A DNA stretch of 64,000 nucleotides from an uncultured Chloroflexia bacterium (GCA_963762445.1 CAVXLA010000007.1:735-64734), one strand, 5' to 3'; shown: positions 15,859 to 26,593, counted from the stretch's first letter. Program-made: numbers and translations. Notes: generated by a model from the letters alone, not told the origin.

Positions 15859-17322
15859 TCAGGCCGGCACCAAGTGAGCGCCAGCGCCGCGTCTGATCAA
15901 GTCGAGGCGGTCGCCGAGGTCGTGCGCCGGCCTGAAGACGAACCGGCGCCCAATCTGTGTCCGGACGAGCAACCCCATCCCTGCAAGTTCAAGCAGATCG
16001 GACCGCGCCGATTCGTATACCACACGATGGCTTGTCATGTGACTCCGGAACGTGTACTCGGCGTCAGGATTGCGGAGTGCGTGTCCGATGACGGCGAGTT
16101 GACGGTGGTTCAAGTCGGTGTCCCTCAGCAACTCCTCCGCCTTCCGCACCTCTCGGATCTTGCGCACCAGGTACTGGTGAAGTTCGTCGATCGCGCGGCA
16201 GATGACGCTGAGTTGGTAGAGCAGGAAATATGTCGTATCGAGATCGTCGGTCTCGGTGTAGAGGAAGGCGCGGGCGTACTGGGCCGGCGCCTTCTTGAGA
16301 ATCCTCGAAATCGACAGGAATTCCGTGAGCCAATAGCCCTGGCGGAGCATTGACCAGTAGAAGAGCGCACGAGCGGTCCTCCCGTTCCCATCCGAAAACG
16401 GGTGGTCGTACGCAAGCCAGAAGTGCACGAGGATTGAGCGGACTACTGGGTGCATGAACCCGCTCGTTTCGCCCCCGTTGGCAAACCTGCAGAGCGCCTC
16501 CAGACGCTCCGGCAGCAACGCGGCCGGAGGTGGCTGGTGGAGGACCTTGCCATCGGATCGGTCGATGATTGAGACGCGCGTCTCACCTGGGAGTTGCGGG
16601 CGCCCTGCCCCAGACGCGTCGTCGAGCGTGTCTTCGGTCAGGATCCGATGCAGTTCGAAGATCCGTTGGACCGTCAATGGCTCATCCGACCATGTCCGCA
16701 TCGAGCCCATGGCGCTGTAGTTGTTCAGGATCATTCGCTCGCTGACGCTTCGCGGCGCCCGACCCGACTTGATCATCTCCTTTGCCACCCTGGCGGTGGT
16801 CGACGCCCCTTCAAGCTGGCTCGAGTTGATCGCCTCCTCGATCAGAGAGCTTACGAGATACCTCCTCCGAGACTGCTCGTTGGCGACTAGCTCGGGGAAC
16901 GTGATCACGCCGCTCGCCTTCTGATCGATTTGGTGGACCATTTCCCATGCGGGATCTGGCATGGCGAACAGGAACGGCCTCCCGGCGGCGTCGGCGAACC
17001 GCAGCTGTCTAAGCAGAGACTGTCGGGCCAGCTTGATTCCGGCCCACCACTCTTCGTGGGTCAGACCAGCCGGAGGTGTGAGTTGCCGCAGCGTGTCCCA
17101 GTGTCGGTACTTCTCACCCACCGTTGGAAACACGCCAGCAGCCAAGATCTTCTGCAGGCTGTCGGGCGACCGCCCGAGGATGTCCCAGTGTCCCGGCGGT
17201 GCGAGAGGGAGTTTCACGCCCTGCTCCAGTCCAGTTTCAAGTCCCAACGTCCGACGGAATGGTACAAGTCTACCATCATCGACGCTTGATGGTAGTCGGA
17301 GGCAGTCGCCTGACGTGGCCAA
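15859..17322 (-). CDS. Fic family protein with internal inhibitory motif and C-terminal wHTH
   Basis: HPFSDGNGRTAR active motif; SSQLEG inhibitory motif; lower GC; true start may be near 17217. Confidence 0.9.
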   Translation of the reverse strand: MATSGDCLRLPSSVDDGRLVPFRRTLGLETGLEQGVKLPLAPPGHWDILGRSPDSLQKILAAGVFPTVGEKYRHWDTLRQLTPPAGLTHEEWWAGIKLARQSLLRQLRFADAAGRPFLFAMPDPAWEMVHQIDQKASGVITFPELVANEQSRRRYLVSSLIEEAINSSQLEGASTTARVAKEMIKSGRAPRSVSERMILNNYSAMGSMRTWSDEPLTVQRIFELHRILTEDTLDDASGAGRPQLPGETRVSIIDRSDGKVLHQPPPAALLPERLEALCRFANGGETSGFMHPVVRSILVHFWLAYDHPFSDGNGRTARALFYWSMLRQGYWLTEFLSISRILKKAPAQYARAFLYTETDDLDTTYFLLYQLSVICRAIDELHQYLVRKIREVRKAEELLRDTDLNHRQLAVIGHALRNPDAEYTFRSHMTSHRVVYESARSDLLELAGMGLLVRTQIGRRFVFRPAHDLGDRLDLIRRGAGAHLVPA

Positions 17323-17457
17323 GGTTAGCGATCATTGATTCCCAAGTTTGGGAGTCATTAGTAGTTCACTGGTAGTCGGAGGCAGTCGCCTGACGCGGCC
17401 AAGGCTAGCGATCGTTGATTCCCAAGTTTGGGAGTCATTAGTAGTTCACTGGTAGTC
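17291..17457. repeat. 80-bp tandem repeat, 2 copies plus partial
   Basis: 17291-17370 vs 17371-17450 differ at 3 positions; each holds the dyad GATTCCCAA-GT-TTGGGAGTC. Confidence 0.95.
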
Positions 17458-17586
17458 CGGAAAGGATGCGCCCAGGCGGGCCGCTCTTCGACTTCCGCAC
17501 AGACTCACGAACTAGACCAGACGCTGGCGACAGTCCACACACGAGCATGGCACTCGGCTACCCTCTCTTCGGGCTTCCGCAAGCGA

Positions 17587-19576
17587 GTGACGGACATCAA
17601 CAACCACGGCCAGCTCATCTGGGCCATCGCCGACCTGCTCCGGGGTGACTACAAGCAGTCGGAGTACGGGCGGGTCATCCTCCCGCTCGTCGTGCTGCGC
17701 CGGCTCGACTGCGTCCTCGAGCCCACGAAGCAGCAGGTCCGCGCCCGCCTCGCGTCGCTCGAGGGCCGCGTCGAGAACGTCGGCCCGATCCTCCAGGCGA
17801 TCACGGGCATCGAGGTCTACAACACCTCGCCCGCTGACCCTGAAGAAGATCCTCGCCGACCCGTCCCAGGTCGCCGGCAACCTCCGGGCCTGGATCGCCG
17901 CCTTCGACGACGAGACCCGCGACGTCATCGAGAAGTTCGACTTCGACGCCCAGATCGGGCGGCTCGACCGGGCGAAGCTCCTCTACCTCGTCCTGGCGAA
18001 GGTCACCGAGGTCGATCTCCATCCCGACGCGGTCAGCAACGTCGAGATGGGCTACCTGTACGAGGAGCTGATCCGCAAGTTCTCCGAGCTGTCGAACGAG
18101 ACCGCCGGCGAGCACTTCACGCCCCGCGAGGTCATCCGCCTCATGGTCGATCTCCTCTTCATCGAGGACGACGAGGCGCTGCGGACGCCGGGCATCGTGC
18201 GGACGATGCTCGACCCCGCCTGCGGCACCGGCGGGATGCTCTCGGTCGCCGCCGAGTACCTCCGCGAGCTGAACCCGGGCGCGAGGCTCGAGGGCTACGG
18301 CCAGGAGCTGAACGCCGAGACGTACGCCATCTGCCGCTCCGACATGATGCTCAAGGGCCAGAAGGCGTCGAACATCCGCCTCGGCAACAGCTTCAGCGAG
18401 GACGCCTTCAAGGGCGCTCGCTACGACTACCTCCTCGCCAATCCGCCCTTCGGGGTCGAGTGGAAGAAGGTCCAGCGCGAGATCGAGGACGAGCACGACA
18501 AGCTCGGCTTCGGCGGTCGCTTCGGGGCCGGCCTGCCCCGCATCAACGACGGCTCGTTCCTCTTCCTCCAGCACATGATCAGCAAGCTCAAGCGGCCCGA
18601 GGAGGGTGGCGGACGGCTCGCCATCGTCTTCAACGGCTCGCCCCTCTTCACGGGCGGCGCGGGCTCGGGCGAGAGCGAGATCCGGCGCTGGATCATCGAG
18701 AACGACTGGCTCGAGGGGATCGTCGCCCTCCCGGACCAGCTCTTCTACAACACCGGGATCAGCACCTACTTCTGGATCGTCACCAACCGCAAGAAGCCCG
18801 AGCGCCGGGGCAAGGTCCAGCTCGTCGATGCCCGCGAGCTGTTCACGAAGATGCGGAAGAGCCTCGGCGAGAAGCGCAAGGAGATCAGCCCGGACCAGAT
18901 CGCCGAGATCACCCGCCTCTACGGCGCGTTCGAGGAGAACGAGCGGGTGAAGATCCTCCCGAACGAGTCGTTCGGGTTCCAGCGGATCACGGTCGAGCGC
19001 CCGCTCCGCCTCCGGTACGAGGTCACCGAGGCGACCCTGCCGGCGGTCGAGACCTCGGCGGGCTGGGCGAAGCTGACCGAGCCGGAGCGCCTGGCTCTCG
19101 TGGATCGTCTCGAGGCGCTCAAGGGCCTCGCATCGACGGACCGAGCCGAGGTCGCCCGACGCCTCGGCCCGCTCCCGAAGGCCATCGACAAGGCGGTCTG
19201 GGACGCGCTCGCGGTCCGCGACCCCGACGCCCCGGTCATCACCGACCGCAAGGGGCATCCCGAGCCGGACCCGGACCTCCGCGACAACGAGAACGTCCCG
19301 CTGCCGGGGCCGGTCGAGGGGTACGACGAGGACCCGACCGAGCGCCTCGCCTCGCCGCCGTACCGCGCCGCCGTCGATGCCTACATGGCGGCCGAGGTCC
19401 TCCCGTTCGTGCCCGACGCCTGGGTGGACCACGCCAAGACGAAGATCGGCTACGAGATCCCGCTCACCCGCCAGTTCTACCGCTACGTCCCGCCGCGCCC
19501 GCTCGAGGAGATCGACGCCGAGATCAGGGCGCTCGAGGAGGAGATCCAGCGGCTGCTCCGCGAGGTCACGGCGTGA
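17587..19576 (+). CDS. hsdM: Type I R-M methyltransferase subunit (m6A); frameshift near 17830
   Basis: IWAIADLLRGDYKQSEYG, GEHFTPREVI, DPACGTGGML, NPPF. Confidence 0.92.
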
Positions 19577-20827
19577 CGTGACGTGGCGGTTCGGGCCGCC
19601 GCACAACGACTGCAGCCGCCAGAGTGGCGATGGGTGTCCCCGGAGCGCGTCGCGTCGCTCGTCCGTGCAGCGGATCGCGACGGCCGAGCGCCCCTGCATC
19701 CGTGTCACGGAGCTGACATCAGGAGCGCCCAGCGGACGGCGGACGGCAGCTTCCGACGGACGTCCGATCCCCGACTACTGGCTGGTCGAGCGGGGCGACC
19801 TCGTCGTGAACCGAATGGGGCGCATCGAGGGCGGTCGGGCGTGCGCCGTGCGCGGCGTCGTCGGCGCTGTGAGTCCTGCGTATCGCGTCGACGGGCCACT
19901 CGGTGCTGGAGCGCGACGGTTCTGGCACCACTACTGCGATCTCAGGTTGCGCGGGCCCAGTGACGACCTAGATCACGCGGCATCGGATCGACGTTCGACC
20001 GCTGCGCATCTCGCGAGCAGACCTCGAGTGGCATGCCAGTGCCGGTGCCGTCCCGATGCACGTTCAACGCGCAGTCGCCGACTACCTCGACGCGGAAGCA
20101 GCACGCATCGACGTACTTGTCGAACTCCGTAGGAGGATCCTGGAGCTCCTCGCCGAGCGGCGACGGCTGGCGACGGATCGGACGTTCGCCGACTCGTCGG
20201 GAGGTCGTGCTTGGCCGGTCGTGAAGCTGAAGCATGTGGTCGTGGGCTTCGTGGATACCCTCCACGCGACTGCTCCCGGTGAAGATGATGGCCCCGGCTA
20301 CATCGTTGGGACGAGCTGCATCAAGGGCGGGTCCCTGAACCTTGCCGTCGCTCGACGCTGCTCGACTGCAACGCTCCGTGAGTGGACGAAGCGTGCCGTC
20401 CCACGTCCGGGCGACGTTCTGCTGACCCGCGAAGCCCCGGCGGGTGAAGCGGCTCTCGTCCCCGCCGGGATCCGACTTGCTCCCGGGCAGCGCGTCGTAC
20501 TGGTTCAGACCGACCGCCGTCGCATGCTGCCCGAACTCGTGTTGCACTCGATCTACTCGGCACGCGCTGGGCGCTTCTTCGACCTTCTCGGACGCGAGAC
20601 CACCGTGGCGCACCTGAACATGGGCGACATCGGCGAGTTGCCCGTTGTGCTGCCTCCGCTCGAAGTCCAGCCGGCGATCGGCGGCCAGGATCGCGGCGGA
20701 GCTCGCCTCGCTGGATCAGGCCAGTTCGGCGATGTCCCGCCAGATCGCCCTCCTCCGCGAGCGTCGTCAGGCCCTTATCACCGCTGCGGTCACCGGCCAG
20801 CTCGACATCCCCGGAGTCGCCGCGTGA
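19573..20827 (+). CDS. hsdS: Type I R-M specificity subunit; many frameshifts, first TRD scrambled
   Basis: GDLVVNRM, VSPAY, QRAVADYLDAEAARIDVL, GDVLLTREAP, LRERRQALITAAVTGQLD in different frames. Confidence 0.8.
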
Positions 20828-20952
20828 AGCCCGACGAGCGCGGCTTCGAGGACGCGATCACGGAGTCGTTGGGCGAGGATGGCGGCTATCGAGTCAGGAA
20901 GTGGCGTGAGGCCCCCGCGGGCGGAGCGGGCTTGACCGGGACGGCCGAGTAG
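20824..20952 (+). pseudogene. Truncated duplicate of the hsdR 5' end
   Basis: VKPDERGFEDAITESLGEDGGYRVRKW vs MKPDERGFEDAITASLVEAGGYRVCKW at 21678; first 32 nt identical. Confidence 0.85.
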
Positions 20953-20966
20953 GCGAGTATGCGCGT

Positions 20967-21239
20967 ATGAGGCGCACAACGATCAGCCTGCCGGACGACG
21001 TTGCGGCTGCCCTCGAACGGGAGGCGCGCCGGCGGCGCGTGCCCGTGTCACAGGTCGCCCGCGAGGCGATCGAGGCTCGGCTGGGACTCGCGGACGAGGG
21101 GCCGCGCGACATCCCGTTCATCGGCATCGGGGACAGCGGCGGGGCGTTCGTGGGCATCGCCGAGTACATGGACTCGGGCGAGTTCGAGAAGGACTACGCG
21201 GACTGGATCTACACGGATGCGTTCGGTCGCGATCCTTGA
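20967..21239 (+). CDS. vapB: CopG/RHH antitoxin
   Basis: MRRTTISLPDDVAAALEREARRRRVPVSQVAREAI. Confidence 0.85.
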   Translation: MRRTTISLPDDVAAALEREARRRRVPVSQVAREAIEARLGLADEGPRDIPFIGIGDSGGAFVGIAEYMDSGEFEKDYADWIYTDAFGRDP

Positions 21240-21681
21240 CGCCGGGCCGCTGTACGCGGCCACGGACCGCAGCGAGCCGGACCACCGGCGGTGCGTCGAC
21301 GTCCTTCGACGGCGCGACCTCGAGCTCGTGATCCCAGTCTTGGCTCTGGCGGAGGCAGCGTACTTCGTTGGCAAGAGGCTGGGCCCGACCACGGAAAGCG
21401 CCTTCGTGCGGGGGCTCAGCGTCTTCGCCATCGAGTCGCCGGGCGTTGAGGACTGGCCGGTCATCGCTGACCTGGTCGAGCGCTACGCGGACCTGCGGCT
21501 CGGCACGACGGACGCGGCAACGATCGTTCTCGCGGACCGCCTCGAGACCGACCTCATCGTGACCCTCGATCGCCGCCATTTCGGTGCGATCCAGTCGCCG
21601 CAGGGCCGGCGCTTCCGCCTGCTTCCGGAGCTCCCCGCGGTCCACGAGGAGCCGGCGTCGTACGAGGCGGCGCAGGAGTGA
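21217..21681 (+). CDS. vapC: VapC/PIN toxin
   Basis: ILDAGPL, LAEAAY, LGTTDA, TLDRRHF. Confidence 0.88.
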   Translation: MRSVAILDAGPLYAATDRSEPDHRRCVDVLRRRDLELVIPVLALAEAAYFVGKRLGPTTESAFVRGLSVFAIESPGVEDWPVIADLVERYADLRLGTTDAATIVLADRLETDLIVTLDRRHFGAIQSPQGRRFRLLPELPAVHEEPASYEAAQE

Positions 21682-24600
21682 AGCCCGACGAGCGCGGCTT
21701 CGAGGACGCCATCACCGCCTCGCTGGTCGAGGCCGGCGGATACCGCGTCTGCAAGTGGGGGACGAAGCCCGAGTGGGCGGGCGACTTCAACCCGAAGCTG
21801 GGCCTCGACACGGCGGAGCTGCTCGGCGTTCATCGCGGAGACCCAGCCGACGGCCTGGAAGCGTCTCCTCGAGGTCCACGGCGGCGCCGGACGGCGTCCT
21901 CGCAGCAGTTCGGCGACCGCCTCGCCAAGCAGCTCGACGAGCGCGGCGCGGTGGATGTCCTCCGCCACGGCGTCAACGACCACGGGATCGAGGTCCGCCT
22001 CGCGTTCTTCAAGCCCGCCCACGGCCTGACGCCCGAGCTGACCGAGCGGTATCTCGCCAACCGCCTGACCGTCACCCGCCAGCTCCCCTACGAGGCCGGC
22101 GCGGCGAAGACGCTCGACCTGTGCCTGTTCGTCAACGGCATCCCGGTCGCGACCGCCGAGCTGAAGAACCCGCTGACCCACCAGACCGTCGAGCACGCGA
22201 AGAAGCAGTACCGCGAGGACCGGGACCCGGCGAACGTGACCCTCGGGCGGCGGGCGCTCGTCCACTTCGCGGTCGATCCCGAACCTCGTCGAGATGACGA
22301 CCAGGCTCGAGGGCCTCAGGACCCGGTTCCTGCCCTTCAACCGTGGCGACGCGGGCGGCAAGGGCAACGCCCCCGACCCGACCGGCCACCGGACCCGCTA
22401 CCTGTGGGAGGAGATCTGGGCGCGGGACGCCTGGCTCGACCTCCTGGGCCGCTTCGTCCACGTCGTGCCGGGCGAGGGGCCGACCCACGCGGCGAAGCTC
22501 AAGGCGGGCTCGGTCATCTTCCCCCGCTACCACCAGTGGGACGCCGTCCGCCGGCTCGAGGCGACCGCCCGCGCCGAGGGTCCCGGCCACTCGTACCTCG
22601 TCCAGCACTCGGCGGGCTCGGGCAAGAGCAACACCATCGCCTGGCTCGCCCACCGCCTCATGTCGCTCCACGGGACCGACGAGCGGCCCGTCTTCGACAA
22701 GGTCGTCGTCATCACCGACCGGGTGATCCTCGACCGCCAGCTCCAGGAGACGATCTACCAGTTCGAGCATGCGACCGGGCGTCGTCGCCCGGATCGACCA
22801 GGACAGCGCCCAGCTCGCGGAGGCGCTCGCCGGCGAGCAGAGCCGGATCGTCATCACGACCCTCCAGAAGTTCCCGTTCATCCTCGACAAGGTCACCGAC
22901 CTCGGGCAGCGCCGCTTCGCCGTCATCGTGGACGAGGCCCACTCCTCCCAGACCGGCGAGGCCGCCAAGGACCTCAAGGCCGCCCTCGGCGCGGCGTCCG
23001 CCGAGGCGCAGCTCGAAGCCGCCGAGGGCGCGGACGCGGCGGACGTGCCGCTGGACCCGCAGGACGCCCTGGCGGCGACCGTGGCGGCTCGTGGACGCCA
23101 GCCGAACCTCTCGTTCTTCGCCTTCACCGCGACCCCCAAGGCCCGGACGCTCGAGCTGTTCGGCCGGAAGAACGACGAGGGCAACTACGCCCCGTTCCAC
23201 CTCTACTCGATGCGCCAGGCCATCGAGGAGGGCTTCATCCTCGACGTCCTCGCCAACTACACGACCTACGCGACGTACTGGAAGGTCGGCAAGGCCGTCG
23301 CGGACGATCCCGAGTACGACATCCGCAAGGCGCGGCGCTCCATCGCCCGCTTCGTCTCCCTCCACCCCCACAACCTCGCCCAGAAGGCCGAGGTCATCGT
23401 CGAGCACTTCCGCGAGCACACCCGCCACAAGATCGGCGGGCGCGGCAAGGCGATGGTCGTCACCTCGTCCCGCCTGCACGCGGTCCGCTACAAGCAGGCC
23501 ATCGACGCCTACCTCCGCGAGAAGAGGTACGCCGACACGAAGGCCCTCGTGGCGTTCTCCGGGCGCGTCGATGACGCCGGTCTCGAGTTCACCGAGTCGG
23601 GCATGAACGGCTTCCCCGAGAGCCAGACGGCGGTGCGCTTCAACGAGCCCGCGTTCGGCGTCCTGATCGTGGCCGAGAAGTTCCAGACCGGGTACGACCA
23701 GCCGCTCCTCCACACGATGTTCGTGGACAAGACGCTCGTCGGGCTCGCCGCCGTCCAGACCCTCTCGCGGCTCAACCGGATCCACCCCGAGAAGACCGAC
23801 ACCTTCGTCCTCGACTTCCGCAACGAGGCCGACGAGATCACCGAGGCGTTCAAGCCCTGGTACGAGACGACGGTCGCCGTCCCGACCGACCCGAACCTCC
23901 TCTACGACCTCGCCGACCGGCTGCTCGCGCTCCAGGTCCTCGACGACGCGGAGGCGCGGGCGGTCGCCGCGATCATCGCGGACCGGACGAAGAAGGTCGG
24001 CGATCACGGCCTGGTCCACGCGCTGCTCGCTCCCGCCGTCGAGCGGTTCAAGGCGAAGTCGCCCGACGAGCAGGTCGAGGTCCGCGACGCGCTCGACCAG
24101 TACGTCCGCGCCTACTCGTTCCTGTCCCAGGTCGTGGACTTCGGCGATGTCGCGCTCGAGGCCCTCTACCTCGCGAGCCGAGCCCTGATCGCCCTGCTGC
24201 CGGCGGACGGCGGAGGCCGGCTCGACCTCGGGTCGGACGTGGAGCTGACCCACCTGCGCCTCGAGAAGACGAGCGAGGGCGACATCGGCCCGGACCACGG
24301 AGTCGGGGAGCTGAAGGCGATCTACTCGGGCCGGGGCAAGGAGGCCGAGGAGGAGAAGGAGCACCTCTCGGCCATCATCGCGGTCCTCAACGAGCGGTTC
24401 GGCCTCCAGCTCGGCACCGCCGACCAGCTCTTCTTCGACCAGATGGAGGCGACCTGGCTCGGCGACGAGCAGCTCGTCGCCCAGGCCCGCGCCAACCCCA
24501 TCGAGAACTTCCGCCTGGTCTTCGCCGACCGCTTCATCAAGAGCATCGTCGAGCGCATGGACGACAACGCCGACATCTTCCGCCAGATCCTCGACGAGCC

Positions 24601-24688
24601 GGCCTTCCAGGCGGTGGTGATGGACCACTACCTCCAGCGGGTCTTCGAGCGGGCGCGGCTGCCTGGGCCGGAGAGGGCCGGGGCGTAG
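21678..24688 (+). CDS. hsdR: Type I R-M restriction subunit; frameshifts near 21830/21895, 22283 and 22778
   Basis: DLCLFVNGIPVATAELK nuclease motif, HSAGSGKS, DEAH, TATP, QTLSRLNR. Confidence 0.92.
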
Positions 24689-24758
24689 CAGCCGCCTCAG
24701 AGCGTCGCGAACCAGGGCAGATGTGACGCAAACGGTCATGCGGAGAAGCTCTTGTCGG

Positions 24759-25658
24759 CTACCCGCGGCTCGGGAGTCTCAACCAGTAGACGAAGTCCAC
24801 GAGCCATCGGTCAAACGCGTATGCAAACTCGTCACCGGTGGCGCCGACGTTGGGAATCGGCATGCCTTCGGTCGACATCCGGTCGACAAGGGAGTCGACG
24901 AGCCGGCGCGCCTCTATGGCGCGGACCGTCGTCGACAGGCCCTCGCGCCCGAGGAATCGATGGACTTCGAGCGCAACGCCAAACCGGCTGACCCAATCGG
25001 GCTGAGCGACTGGCGGTTGGAGGCCCGGCAGAATCGGAACCTTGGGCGGCAGGACGAAGCGTCGCTCGTTCCCCACGGATCGTGCCGTCACCAGCCCCGC
25101 CAGAAGGAGCGCATCCAGGGCGGACGCGACGTTCGGCTTCGTGAATCGGGTGACTCGGGCAAGATCGGCGGCGTTGAGGCCTCCGGGCGAGGTGGCCAGT
25201 AGCGCGGCGAGGACATCCGCCCGTGCGTTCACACCGAACGCCGCACGAAGCCGGATGCGCAGCCGTGCCCGTGGTTCCGCCGAGTCCAGTCGGGCCTTTT
25301 CGCGCCGGACGTAGTCTGGCCGGGGTCGCGTCGCCGTCGGCCATGATGGACCGCCCGCTGCTGCGACCGTGGCGACGTACTCACCGATGGCGCCGCTTGG
25401 TGTCCCGAGCTCCCGAACGACCTGCTTGAGCCGGGACCCGTTGACATATCGACCGTACGCGACGCACCAGTCCGTGCTGAGGTCCCGGAGTCGTGCGTCG
25501 GCGTCGCCCAGTTCGGCGGTGAGGGCGATGAGGGCCTCCGGATCCACCACGGCGTCGTCGCGCTCTCCGACCGCGTCGACACCGAGCGCGATCCATTGGA
25601 TCCAGGCTCGGCTGAGAAGTGCTCCACGGAGGGAGCTAGCCGAGGGATGCATCGCCAT
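24759..25658 (-). CDS. Hypothetical protein with C-terminal winged HTH (putative antitoxin/regulator)
   Basis: ARADVLAALL...LNAADLARVTRFTKPNVASALDALLLAGLV; overlaps the 3' end of the upstream NTase gene. Confidence 0.7.
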   Translation of the reverse strand: MAMHPSASSLRGALLSRAWIQWIALGVDAVGERDDAVVDPEALIALTAELGDADARLRDLSTDWCVAYGRYVNGSRLKQVVRELGTPSGAIGEYVATVAAAGGPSWPTATRPRPDYVRREKARLDSAEPRARLRIRLRAAFGVNARADVLAALLATSPGGLNAADLARVTRFTKPNVASALDALLLAGLVTARSVGNERRFVLPPKVPILPGLQPPVAQPDWVSRFGVALEVHRFLGREGLSTTVRAIEARRLVDSLVDRMSTEGMPIPNVGATGDEFAYAFDRWLVDFVYWLRLPSRG

Positions 25659-26226
25659 CGTCCACGCCGAGACCGCGAAGCGTATCGACCAGCAGGCTCC
25701 GGAAGCCAGGCGAGGGGTCGTGGCTCCTCGCCCAGCGGGCAGCCTTGAGGAGATCGTCTCGTCCCGGCTGCAGATCGCGGAGGTCTTGGAGGTGCCGGCT
25801 CCGCGGGCCCTGATCGACGGCCGCGTAGAGCTTGAAACACACCATGTCGAACCAGCCCGCGAGCCACGCCACGACCCCGCCGAAGTCCCGGCGTTCGAGG
25901 CGATCGAGGAACCCATCCGGAAGGCCGAGGTCGAGCAGGGAGTCGGGTCCGGCGTTGAGCCAGTCGGTCGCTAGTCCGAATGCGCGGCCGACATCGATGA
26001 CGGCGTCGCGCAGCGGCTCCGGCATCGGGCGAATCGGCCTGATGCCGTCGGGTGTCCACTCGCCGAGGACGTCGAGGTCCTTGGTGGTCGGGCGCTCGAT
26101 GAGCCCGCGCAGGATGAGGTTGCCACCACCCACGATAACGACGTCGTAGTGGACCCCACGGGCCGCCAGCAACTCGCCAAGGGCGCTCAGCGCCCCCTCG
26201 AGCTGCGCCCTGCCGATCGTATCCAT
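25636..26226 (-). CDS. DUF6036/AbiEii-like nucleotidyltransferase
   Basis: VVIVGGG...RPTTKDLDV Pol-beta motif, WLNAGP, FKLYAAVD, HLQDL. Confidence 0.8.
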   Translation of the reverse strand: MDTIGRAQLEGALSALGELLAARGVHYDVVIVGGGNLILRGLIERPTTKDLDVLGEWTPDGIRPIRPMPEPLRDAVIDVGRAFGLATDWLNAGPDSLLDLGLPDGFLDRLERRDFGGVVAWLAGWFDMVCFKLYAAVDQGPRSRHLQDLRDLQPGRDDLLKAARWARSHDPSPGFRSLLVDTLRGLGVDDGDASLG

Positions 26227-26518
26227 ACGCTGACGATACGTCGCCTTGTGGGAAGAGTCAACCTATCGACTCGATAAACTGATACTTACTGGTGGGCCCA
26301 GTATCACGAGCTGCTGTCCAAGAGACAGCAGGTCCTCGAGGCGAGCCTTCGCGCCTGCCACTGGATCCTCGGCGGATCGGAACCCGTGCACGAGGGCTCA
26401 ACGATCTTGTCCAGTTGGCAGGTCTTCGCGGGCCTTCGAGCGCTGTGGCGAGGCCGGCGGTGCCACGAACGGGGGACCCGCACAGATAGCAGGTCTTCCC
26501 ACGCACGAATCGAAGGAG

Positions 26519-26593
26519 TGGAGCCGACACTCGGATTCGAACCGAGGACCTGCTGTTTACGAAACAGCTGCTCTACCGCTGAGCTATGTCGGC
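26519..26593 (-). tRNA. tRNA-Thr(CGT)
   Basis: GCCGACA...TGTCGGC-TCCA cloverleaf, anticodon loop TTCGTAA, GGTTCGAATCC T arm, encoded CCA. Confidence 0.97.

Follow-up and report, generated by a model that had tools for sequence, protein, structure and literature searches.

A predicted VapBC cassette at the hsdS/hsdR junction of a type I restriction-modification operon in an uncultured Chloroflexia bacterium

A gene pair predicted to code for a VapBC toxin-antitoxin (TA) system is located between hsdS and hsdR in a type I restriction-modification (R-M) operon of an uncultured Chloroflexia bacterium. The operon was analysed within a DNA stretch of 64,000 nucleotides (nt) (GCA_963762445.1 CAVXLA010000007.1:735-64734), hereafter called the window, whose positions are counted from its first letter. 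The host is described as an uncultured soil or sediment bacterium, and its genome is of high GC content (73%) and Chloroflexota-like. The gene order is hsdM-hsdS-hsdR'-vapB-vapC-hsdR, where hsdR' is a 42-codon remnant of the hsdR 5' end. Comparison with related loci indicates that the cassette probably occupies an accessory slot between hsdS and hsdR in an allele form shared with other genomes, as a lodger that carries the expression of hsdR; in the same reading hsdR' is the scar of a recombination event and the frameshifts in the hsd genes are errors of the assembly. The original prediction, obtained from the sequence alone, had placed a VapBC module within a type I R-M operon, after a truncated hsdR start of about 42 codons overlapping the hsdS stop, with a ribbon-helix-helix (RHH) gene and a PIN gene following and with the toxin stop overlapping the GTG of hsdR. 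Window sequence, open reading frames, Pfam matches and repeat searches confirmed it overall, every element being found in place (Table 1). The second, full hsdR start with its 32 identical nt was also recovered, but the gene that follows is not one open frame in the assembly, since it is interrupted by six single-base insertions.

The arrangement is found in many other loci. A metagenome scan with an alignment of hsdR N-termini returned 63 loci of the same hsdR family: in 45 hsdS abuts hsdR (canonical alleles), 17 have vapBC in the slot between the two genes and one is organized otherwise. A genome scan with VapC, using one genome per species, gave 54 loci, all the titled records being metagenome-assembled genomes, mostly of Chloroflexota; hsdR comes directly after vapC in three of them (Chloroflexota records), and at 50 no hsdR match was found beside the VapC relative in the DNA examined. 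The window, the 17 metagenome loci and the three genome-record loci make up the 21 TA-form loci considered here. The check proposed with the original prediction, a comparison of homologous hsdMSR loci with and without the insert (17 against 45 of the 63), supported it on this point, as the two forms differ exactly at the junction between the hsdS stop and the hsdR start. In 15 of the 17 TA-form loci that include the vapB start, hsdS ends in GC(G/A)TGA, which is, as far as its sequence tells, a relic of the canonical stop/start overlap. The cassette is flanked by short direct repeats of 4-9 nt ending in TGA, and several loci have the same 8-9 nt at the end of hsdS and immediately ahead of hsdR.

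Among 60 relatives searched at the DNA level, four congeners match the vapBC region. The first of them, G028, has hsdM, an M78-peptidase/DUF4411 pair, hsdS, a second VapB/PIN pair, the RHH/PIN pair and an intact hsdR of 1000 amino acids, which starts with an ATGA overlap; the hsdR fragment is absent. Its operon (L017, G028:C40, 135-10783) holds three accessory modules: the M78 peptidase and DUF4411 genes lie between hsdM and hsdS, the slot between hsdS and hsdR is occupied by a VapB_antitoxin (PF09957)/PIN pair together with the RHH/PIN pair, and a transposase gene of IS4/5 type stands upstream of the operon. The same double-TA layout is seen in metagenome locus L103. The M78-peptidase/DUF4411 pair is found in the hsdM/hsdS slot of G028 and of two metagenome loci, and not in the window. 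In G001 (L018, 8500-9540) vapBC is kept, and of the hsdR behind it about 45 codons remain, with an internal deletion; in G033 vapBC lies beside a different, divergently oriented hsdM, with no hsdR; and in G019 (L019, 6200-6370) nothing but the final ~40 codons of vapC and a corrupted start of hsdR is left. The G001 and G019 loci look like decay stages of a vapBC-hsdR unit, and both stand beside the same conserved methyltransferase-like and LysM-like genes; in G001 the stub adjoins, by eye, genes resembling an XRE/HipA pair. To judge from these comparisons, the vapBC-hsdR unit is an old shared allele form and not a fresh local entry.

The identity of the cassette follows from several features of its two genes. 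VapC matches PF01850 with 43 bits against a cut-off of 23.6, and PIN is the sole Pfam family matched; residues D8, E46, D99 and D118, which we take to be the acidic active-site quartet of PIN domains, are invariant in all 18 aligned homologs. The alignment comprised 18 rows picked from the window and the 54 genome loci, after two rows had been dropped, one of them for stop codons. A VapB match is present just upstream of vapC in 42 of the 54 loci. VapB has 87% amino acid identity with its counterpart in locus L020, and the ratio of non-synonymous to synonymous divergence (dN/dS) from this locus is 0.16 for vapB and 0.28 for vapC; both genes are, on these values, under purifying selection. A PIN toxin, conserved acidic residues and an overlapping upstream antitoxin gene with a DNA-binding domain are thus the features that the sequence provides for a VapBC system, and the cassette is accordingly classified as a predicted type II TA of VapBC kind, with an RHH antitoxin and a putative PIN-domain RNase as toxin. 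The VapC proteins embedded in R-M operons and their closest relatives have a C-terminal tail of about 15 residues, which extends to the hsdR start (21589-21678 in the window, and in relatives); more distant stand-alone VapC homologs stop soon past a conserved LLP. The tail may have evolved as an extension up to the start codon of hsdR.

Two further features connect the cassette with hsdR. A motif of the form TTGAC-N19-AGTATGC stands ahead of vapB and is invariant in all 17 TA-form loci whose sequence covers the vapB start; the spacing is also fixed there, TTGAC lying 35 nt before the vapB ATG and AGTATGC at -11 to -5. Written with a 17-nt spacer it reads TTGACN / (G/C)AGTAT and ends 6 nt short of the ATG, so that the vapB transcript would be leaderless or near-leaderless. 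At the other end, an [A/G]TGA overlap joins the vapC stop to the hsdR start in 21 of 21 TA-form loci, and an overlap of the same type joins the hsdS stop to the hsdR start in 42 of 45 canonical ones. The earlier proposal that the insert puts hsdR under the TA promoter and under translational coupling agrees with both features, although as a statement on expression it stays a prediction.

The cassette also appears to move between alleles. In a tree of hsdR nt 91-630, built on 52 rows (15 were left out, 14 as too short and one as unclassified), TA-form and canonical alleles are interleaved: the TA label requires 10 changes, at least three of them forced by well-supported branches, against a mean of 14.5 for shuffled labels, and the well-supported clade of 12 to which the hsdR of the window belongs contains nine canonical and three TA rows. 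Indeed, the window itself is, by sequence identity along its length, a mosaic of L020-like and G028-like segments. In steps of 60 nt, the DNA-binding half of vapB has 77-88% identity with both L020 and G028; the C-terminal half of vapB and vapC (21112-21590) have 85-97% with L020 and only 40-83% with G028; and from about 21740 onward hsdR is 85-97% identical to G028 and 68-88% to L020. The synonymous divergence (dS) from the TA-bearing G028 is about equal for hsdM (0.26) and hsdR (0.23).

The fragment hsdR' is the one element by which the window departs from the other TA-form loci: it is unique to the window and was seen at none of the 16 others with the junction in view. Its frame reads VKPDERGFEDAIT...GGYRV from the GTG at 20824, and its homology to hsdR is confined to 20824-20904, with 64% amino acid identity to the N-terminus of the live hsdR. 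The repeat is not due to chance, since its homology extends, without exception, to the 5' ends of the 67 family hsdR genes compared. In the window 139 nt separate the hsdS stop from the vapB ATG, against 41-57 nt in 14 other loci with hsdS directly before vapB. A motif of GCGTGA type is present in 15 loci, 41-57 nt ahead of the ATG; in the window it stands at 57, with an extra copy at 139. The additional 82 nt consist of hsdR nt 5-81 and a second GCGTGA (20904-20909), after which the usual hsdS-vapB spacer resumes. On its left side hsdR' forms an ordinary canonical hsdS/hsdR junction, and the sole novel joint lies between hsdR nt ~81 (…AAGTG) and a TA-form hsdS end, GCGTGA, with GTG as microhomology. 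This single novel joint beside an ordinary canonical junction points to recombination between a canonical and a TA-bearing allele. Thus hsdR' reads as a scar with one homologous and one illegitimate end, rather than as the footprint of a transposition; the step that made it would have been a cross of the two allele types with an illegitimate joint at the GTG microhomology near hsdR nt ~81. Of the idea that the module entered by recombination at the hsdR start, the recombination and the existence of module-bearing and module-free loci held, while a fresh event with a simple target duplication did not. A target duplication by a transposon or insertion sequence was likewise rejected, as the repeat is 81 nt long at 84% identity and only vapB and vapC lie between the copies. 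An attenuator or terminator within hsdR' was considered and dropped, the predicted RNA fold of 20815-20975 being not unusual (z -1.59).

The source of the fragment was looked for among relatives and in the genome itself. Position 25 of hsdR' is Arg; the corresponding residue is Cys in 59 of 63 metagenome N-termini (GGYRVCKW) and Arg in none, and no donor with the residues specific to hsdR' was present among the 63 metagenome loci, though the search pattern allowed GGYRVRKW. A search of the assembled genome for a second hsdR of the family gave weak scattered matches only, so that no internal donor for hsdR' is at hand there. Two directions of the recombination are compatible with the structure, a swap of hsdS from a canonical donor or the capture of the cassette by a canonical resident, and either may have occurred: the equal nearness of hsdM and hsdR to the TA-bearing G028 favours a TA-bearing resident that swapped in a foreign hsdS, whereas cassette capture by a canonical resident is favoured by a breakpoint at about hsdR nt 60-90 and by the predominance of canonical alleles among the close relatives. 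In an independent contig, L078, a tandem duplication of 13-14 nt that begins with GCGTGA lies ~20-60 nt upstream of vapB, at the junction of the hsdS stop with the vapB promoter; L138, closely similar to L078, is without it. The hsdS/vapB junction therefore rearranges in nature.

All the components of a type I enzyme are represented in the operon, namely an N6-adenine methylase, a specificity subunit and an HsdR with nuclease, SF2 motor and C-terminal domains, but hsdR was recognized through pieces in different frames. Three frame pieces of it match Pfam HSDR_N (4.3e-12), SWI2_SNF2/ResIII and T1R_D3-like domains, and the intact ortholog matches TIGR00348 hsdR at 4.8e-53 (below the curated cut-off) and PADLOC REase_I at 8e-35. 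The pieces of hsdS in the window gave no Pfam match; its resemblance to the congener is limited to the last ~87 nt, 20741-20827 being 84% identical to the end of the G028 hsdS. Relative to the intact ortholog in G028, the hsdR of the window has six single-base insertions, near 21826, 21886, 21903, 22278, 22778 and 24658. In hsdM there is one +1 insertion near 17826, and hsdS has at least three frame changes, each +1, in a three-frame translation read by eye. Since rpoB and rpoC (TIGR02013, TIGR02386), looked for as a core-gene gauge of frameshifts, were not found in the assembly, which has 10 contigs and is 83% complete, frameshifts were surveyed instead with a seven-state frame model of the genome based on codon-position GC (GC3), which puts the frame change of hsdM at 17829. 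The model gave 165 clear frameshift-like junctions over the genome (215 with a less strict cut-off), +1 in 137 cases and -1 in 28, and ordinary gene borders have the opposite bias (440 against 899). The junctions are clustered, with roughly seventeen separate stretches that contain three or more inside 7.2 kb. Examples are C10:177000-190000 (L074) and C5:624000-631000 (L075). One cluster is a second defence island, where SNF2 helicase and DUF499 genes are split and DUF1156 and HEPN_Swt1 are also present; in another a carboxyltransferase (CT_A_B) gene and a B12/radical-SAM gene are split. In the frame of the ortholog, dN/dS is 0.12 in every segment of hsdR, the out-of-frame ones included, and 0.13 in hsdM, and contigs of four other metagenomes are without the extra bases at 21826, 21885, 21902, 22277 and 22775/22777. 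The genome-wide +1 bias, the low dN/dS and the lack of the extra bases in other metagenomes make insertion errors of the assembly the best explanation, and most likely the correct one, of the hsd frameshifts; in an assembly with so strong a bias, broken genes should not be taken as pseudogenes without reads.

Several observations weigh against one or another part of the reading given here. The NCBIfam and PADLOC models gave no match to VapB or VapC, and a scan of 19400-22000 for strict sigma-70 consensus promoters and terminators returned nothing, the motif ahead of vapB scoring 8/12. The two copies of the hsdR 5' end do not differ at all in their first 32 nt and differ at 13 of the next 49 (Fisher p 0.001), and several states of hsdR' are seen in only 1-5 of the 67 relatives. 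From the contrast between 0/32 and 13/49 it follows that a simple one-step scar is insufficient, and that decay together with gene conversion, or selection on the first 32 nt, is needed; a later gene conversion between the copies is a possible cause of the identical stretch, and this stretch is codon-constrained, five of the 67 relatives being identical to the live gene there. No public sequencing run contained more than 0.17 of the sampled words and the four best contain relatives only, so that the junction is that of the assembled sequence. Finally, the density of ~10 frameshifts in the 7.2 kb of the operon is far above that of the 165-215 in 2.8 Mb which the frame model detects over the genome, and another dense cluster of frameshifts is also a defence island.

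With these points taken into account, the reading of the cassette as a lodger is the most economical, because vapBC outlives hsdR in congeners, its relatives are mostly outside R-M loci and it moves among alleles. RHH antitoxins generally autoregulate their own promoter; the cassette would likewise supply a promoter of its own, autoregulated by VapB with VapC. The hsdR gene would be transcribed from this TA promoter and by read-through from hsdMS, and its translation would depend on ribosomes that finish vapC, as it would depend on those finishing hsdS in canonical alleles. The cassette would then be an addictive lodger, mobile by recombination and fitted in such a way that hsdR still works, and it may stabilise the island or add a capacity for abortive infection.

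A different route of entry has some, although a minor, chance of being correct. A circular fragment that consisted of a TA-form hsdS end, vapBC and the first ~81 nt of hsdR could have entered the 5' end of a canonical hsdR by a single homologous crossover of Campbell type, with duplication of this end, and recombination between the repeats could later release the cassette. The structure agrees exactly, with hsdR nt 1-81 repeated directly on either side of the insert, the change from L020-like to G028-like sequence falls near hsdR nt 60-90, and nine of the 12 close relatives of this hsdR are canonical. However, the divergence of the copies past nt 32, with rare residues in hsdR', means that such an event was not recent or that the copy has decayed; no duplication of this kind exists at any of the 16 other TA-form junctions; and the equal distances of hsdM and hsdR from G028 fit a TA-bearing resident with an hsdS swap equally well. 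Excision through the 32-nt repeat is mechanically plausible from the sequence. Short joints in the sequencing data of the relatives mentioned above (e.g., from 20860 to 21720) are such as canonical relatives would give, and were not counted as excision.

It seems unlikely that the operon is dead, with hsdM, hsdS and hsdR as true pseudogenes and the addictive vapBC as the sole working survivor. This would account for ~10 frame changes in the 7.2 kb of hsd genes against none in the 0.7 kb of vapBC, and it is in line with the survival of vapBC without hsdR in congeners and with the second defence island among the frameshift clusters. Conversely, all the measurable changes are +1, as in the 137:28 bias of the genome, which is not seen at ordinary gene borders; metabolic genes are affected too; the shifted segments have no stops, deletions or raised dN/dS (0.12); and at the rate of the operon, zero changes in 0.7 kb would be expected by chance about a third of the time.

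A stronger regulatory role of the cassette is also doubtful. In this proposal the vapBC promoter would be the control point of restriction: production of HsdR would be tied to that of VapB and VapC and proportional to it, the toxin:antitoxin ratio would set the restriction capacity, and destabilisation of VapB, for instance by phage shut-off or stress, would derepress the promoter and so raise HsdR and free VapC at once, with the cassette moving by recombination at the hsdS 3' and hsdR 5' ends.

One of the closest known systems is the hsd locus of Mycobacterium tuberculosis, where vapBC21 (and vapBC42) lie next to hsdM and hsdS.1. That locus resembles the window in having VapBC beside type I hsd genes, and differs in being a methylase without an hsdR partner, whereas the cassette of the window stands between hsdS and hsdR and is stop/start-coupled to the latter. 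Deletion of vapC21 is reported to have raised the transcripts of the adjacent hsdS.1 and hsdM (PMC7517352), and to that extent a vapBC locus can influence the expression of neighbouring hsd genes.

In a further alternative, which was raised in the original prediction and is improbable, VapBC would be a guard functionally linked to the R-M enzyme, in the manner of PrrC with EcoprrI: inhibition or depletion of the restriction complex by a phage, or the shut-off of host transcription, would free VapC and lead to abortive infection, and the shared promoter would raise HsdR and VapC together. Guardians of R-M systems exist, PrrC and PARIS among them; PrrC, an anticodon nuclease whose gene lies within the EcoprrI type IC locus, is reported to be silenced through the restriction complex (PMC12707154). 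The two cases share a gene for an RNA-targeting toxin (predicted, for VapC) inside an hsd operon, PrrC being the textbook guardian of R-M. The position within the hsd operon, the tight coupling to hsdR kept in 21 of 21 TA-form loci and the location in a defence island with a SoFic-like gene would also suit a guard. On the other hand, PrrC is not a PIN protein and has no dedicated antitoxin, whereas the toxin of the window matches only PIN in Pfam, has no similarity to PrrC and is accompanied by its own RHH antitoxin, so that it does not belong to the guardians of PrrC type. Moreover, 45 of 63 loci of the same R-M family are without the cassette, among the 54 genome loci with a VapC relative, no hsdR match adjoins it at 50 in the DNA examined, and vapBC is kept in G001 and G033, where hsdR is a remnant or absent; since vapBC persists without hsdR, the toxin does not depend on the enzyme.

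As for hsdR', it is very improbable that it is an assembly chimera of reads from co-occurring canonical and TA-bearing strains: the assembly is of metagenome type, in 10 contigs, incomplete and with many indel errors, both allele types co-occur in environmental samples and no public run containing the strain was found, but the joint of hsdR nt 81 with GCGTGA is non-homologous, which gives overlap-based assembly no ground for producing it, the two copies have diverged instead of being identical, and a small duplication at this junction is found in L078, an independent contig.

Arrangements of this general kind have been described before. In a survey of PIN-like nucleases (Matelska et al. 2017, NAR, PMC5499597), such proteins are reported as apparently co-transcribed with type I R-M subunits, in arrangements usually not conserved between close species, and protease-controlled regulation is proposed for pairs of an M78 peptidase (ImmA/IrrE-like) and DUF4411 (PIN-like). 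As in the cases given there, a PIN-domain TA toxin is found here in one apparent operon with HsdM, HsdS and HsdR, in a defence-island setting; in contrast to them, 21 loci share the arrangement down to the nucleotide position of the junction, together with a conserved upstream motif and a stop/start overlap with hsdR, beside 45 canonical alleles. The M78/DUF4411 pair is similar to the cassette in that its two genes form a PIN-related module and occupy an accessory slot in this R-M family, and different in that it uses the hsdM/hsdS slot and belongs to other families. In the open-access literature, covered mostly at the level of abstracts, no description of a VapBC cassette conserved at the hsdS/hsdR junction was found, which is not proof of absence. 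What is new here is thus a well-populated series of alleles with and without the cassette, with conserved wiring to hsdR and one scar-bearing allele; the kind of arrangement was already known.

Table 1. Position of the operon genes and associated elements in the window, with the evidence for each assignment
Feature	Position	Strand	Evidence and remarks
hsdM, type I methylase	17587..19576	+	start approximate; Pfam N6_Mtase E 1.6e-59; 92% nt identity to G028 hsdM
hsdS, specificity subunit	19583..20827	+	identified by position and conserved 3' end; HsdS-like motifs in successive frames, by eye
hsdR', 42-codon remnant of the hsdR 5' end	20824..20952	+	GTG 20824 overlaps hsdS TGA 20825-20827; stop TAG 20950-20952
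Second copy of the hsdS-stop motif GCGTGA, right-hand scar joint	20904..20909	+	junction comparison with 16 other TA-form loci
vapB promoter-like motif	20932..20960	+	TTGACC 20932-20937, 17-nt spacer, GAGTAT 20955-20960
vapB, predicted antitoxin, ribbon-helix-helix, 90 amino acids	20967..21239	+	Pfam RHH_1 E 6e-8, residues 3-39
vapC, predicted toxin, PIN domain, 154 amino acids	21217..21681	+	Pfam PIN (PF01850) E 8.2e-11; 23-nt overlap with vapB
hsdR, restriction/translocase subunit	21678..24688	+	GTG 21678 overlaps vapC TGA 21679-21681; 93% nt identity to G028 hsdR
81-nt direct repeat, two copies	20824-20904 and 21678-21758	+	repeat search; 84% identity, first 32 nt identical

The hsd operon lies inside an island of lower GC content (15859-26593), which a tRNA-Thr(cgt) at 26519-26593 (-) adjoins. 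In the same island there are a SoFic-like Fic gene at 15859-17322 (-; PADLOC SoFic 8e-39) and a MarR-like gene at 24759-25916 (-), which overlaps a DUF6036 nucleotidyltransferase gene at 25636-26226 (-), possibly as another two-gene module. Between the divergent fic-like gene and hsdM an 80-nt unit is present in tandem duplicate (17290-17449; 96% identity, GC 53% against 73% in the genome), perhaps a regulatory region that has been duplicated.

Accessory genes dock repeatedly in the slot between hsdS and hsdR, and their wiring into the operon has rarely been documented at the nucleotide level. The 45 canonical and 21 cassette-bearing alleles form a natural series with the same junction, a conserved motif and stop/start coupling, to which the window adds one scar-bearing allele. 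If the vapBC promoter were the control point of restriction, a two-layer defence would be switched by a single autoregulated TA operator; if the cassette is only a selfish lodger, it is still a clean example of the spread of TA systems among defence loci by homologous recombination.

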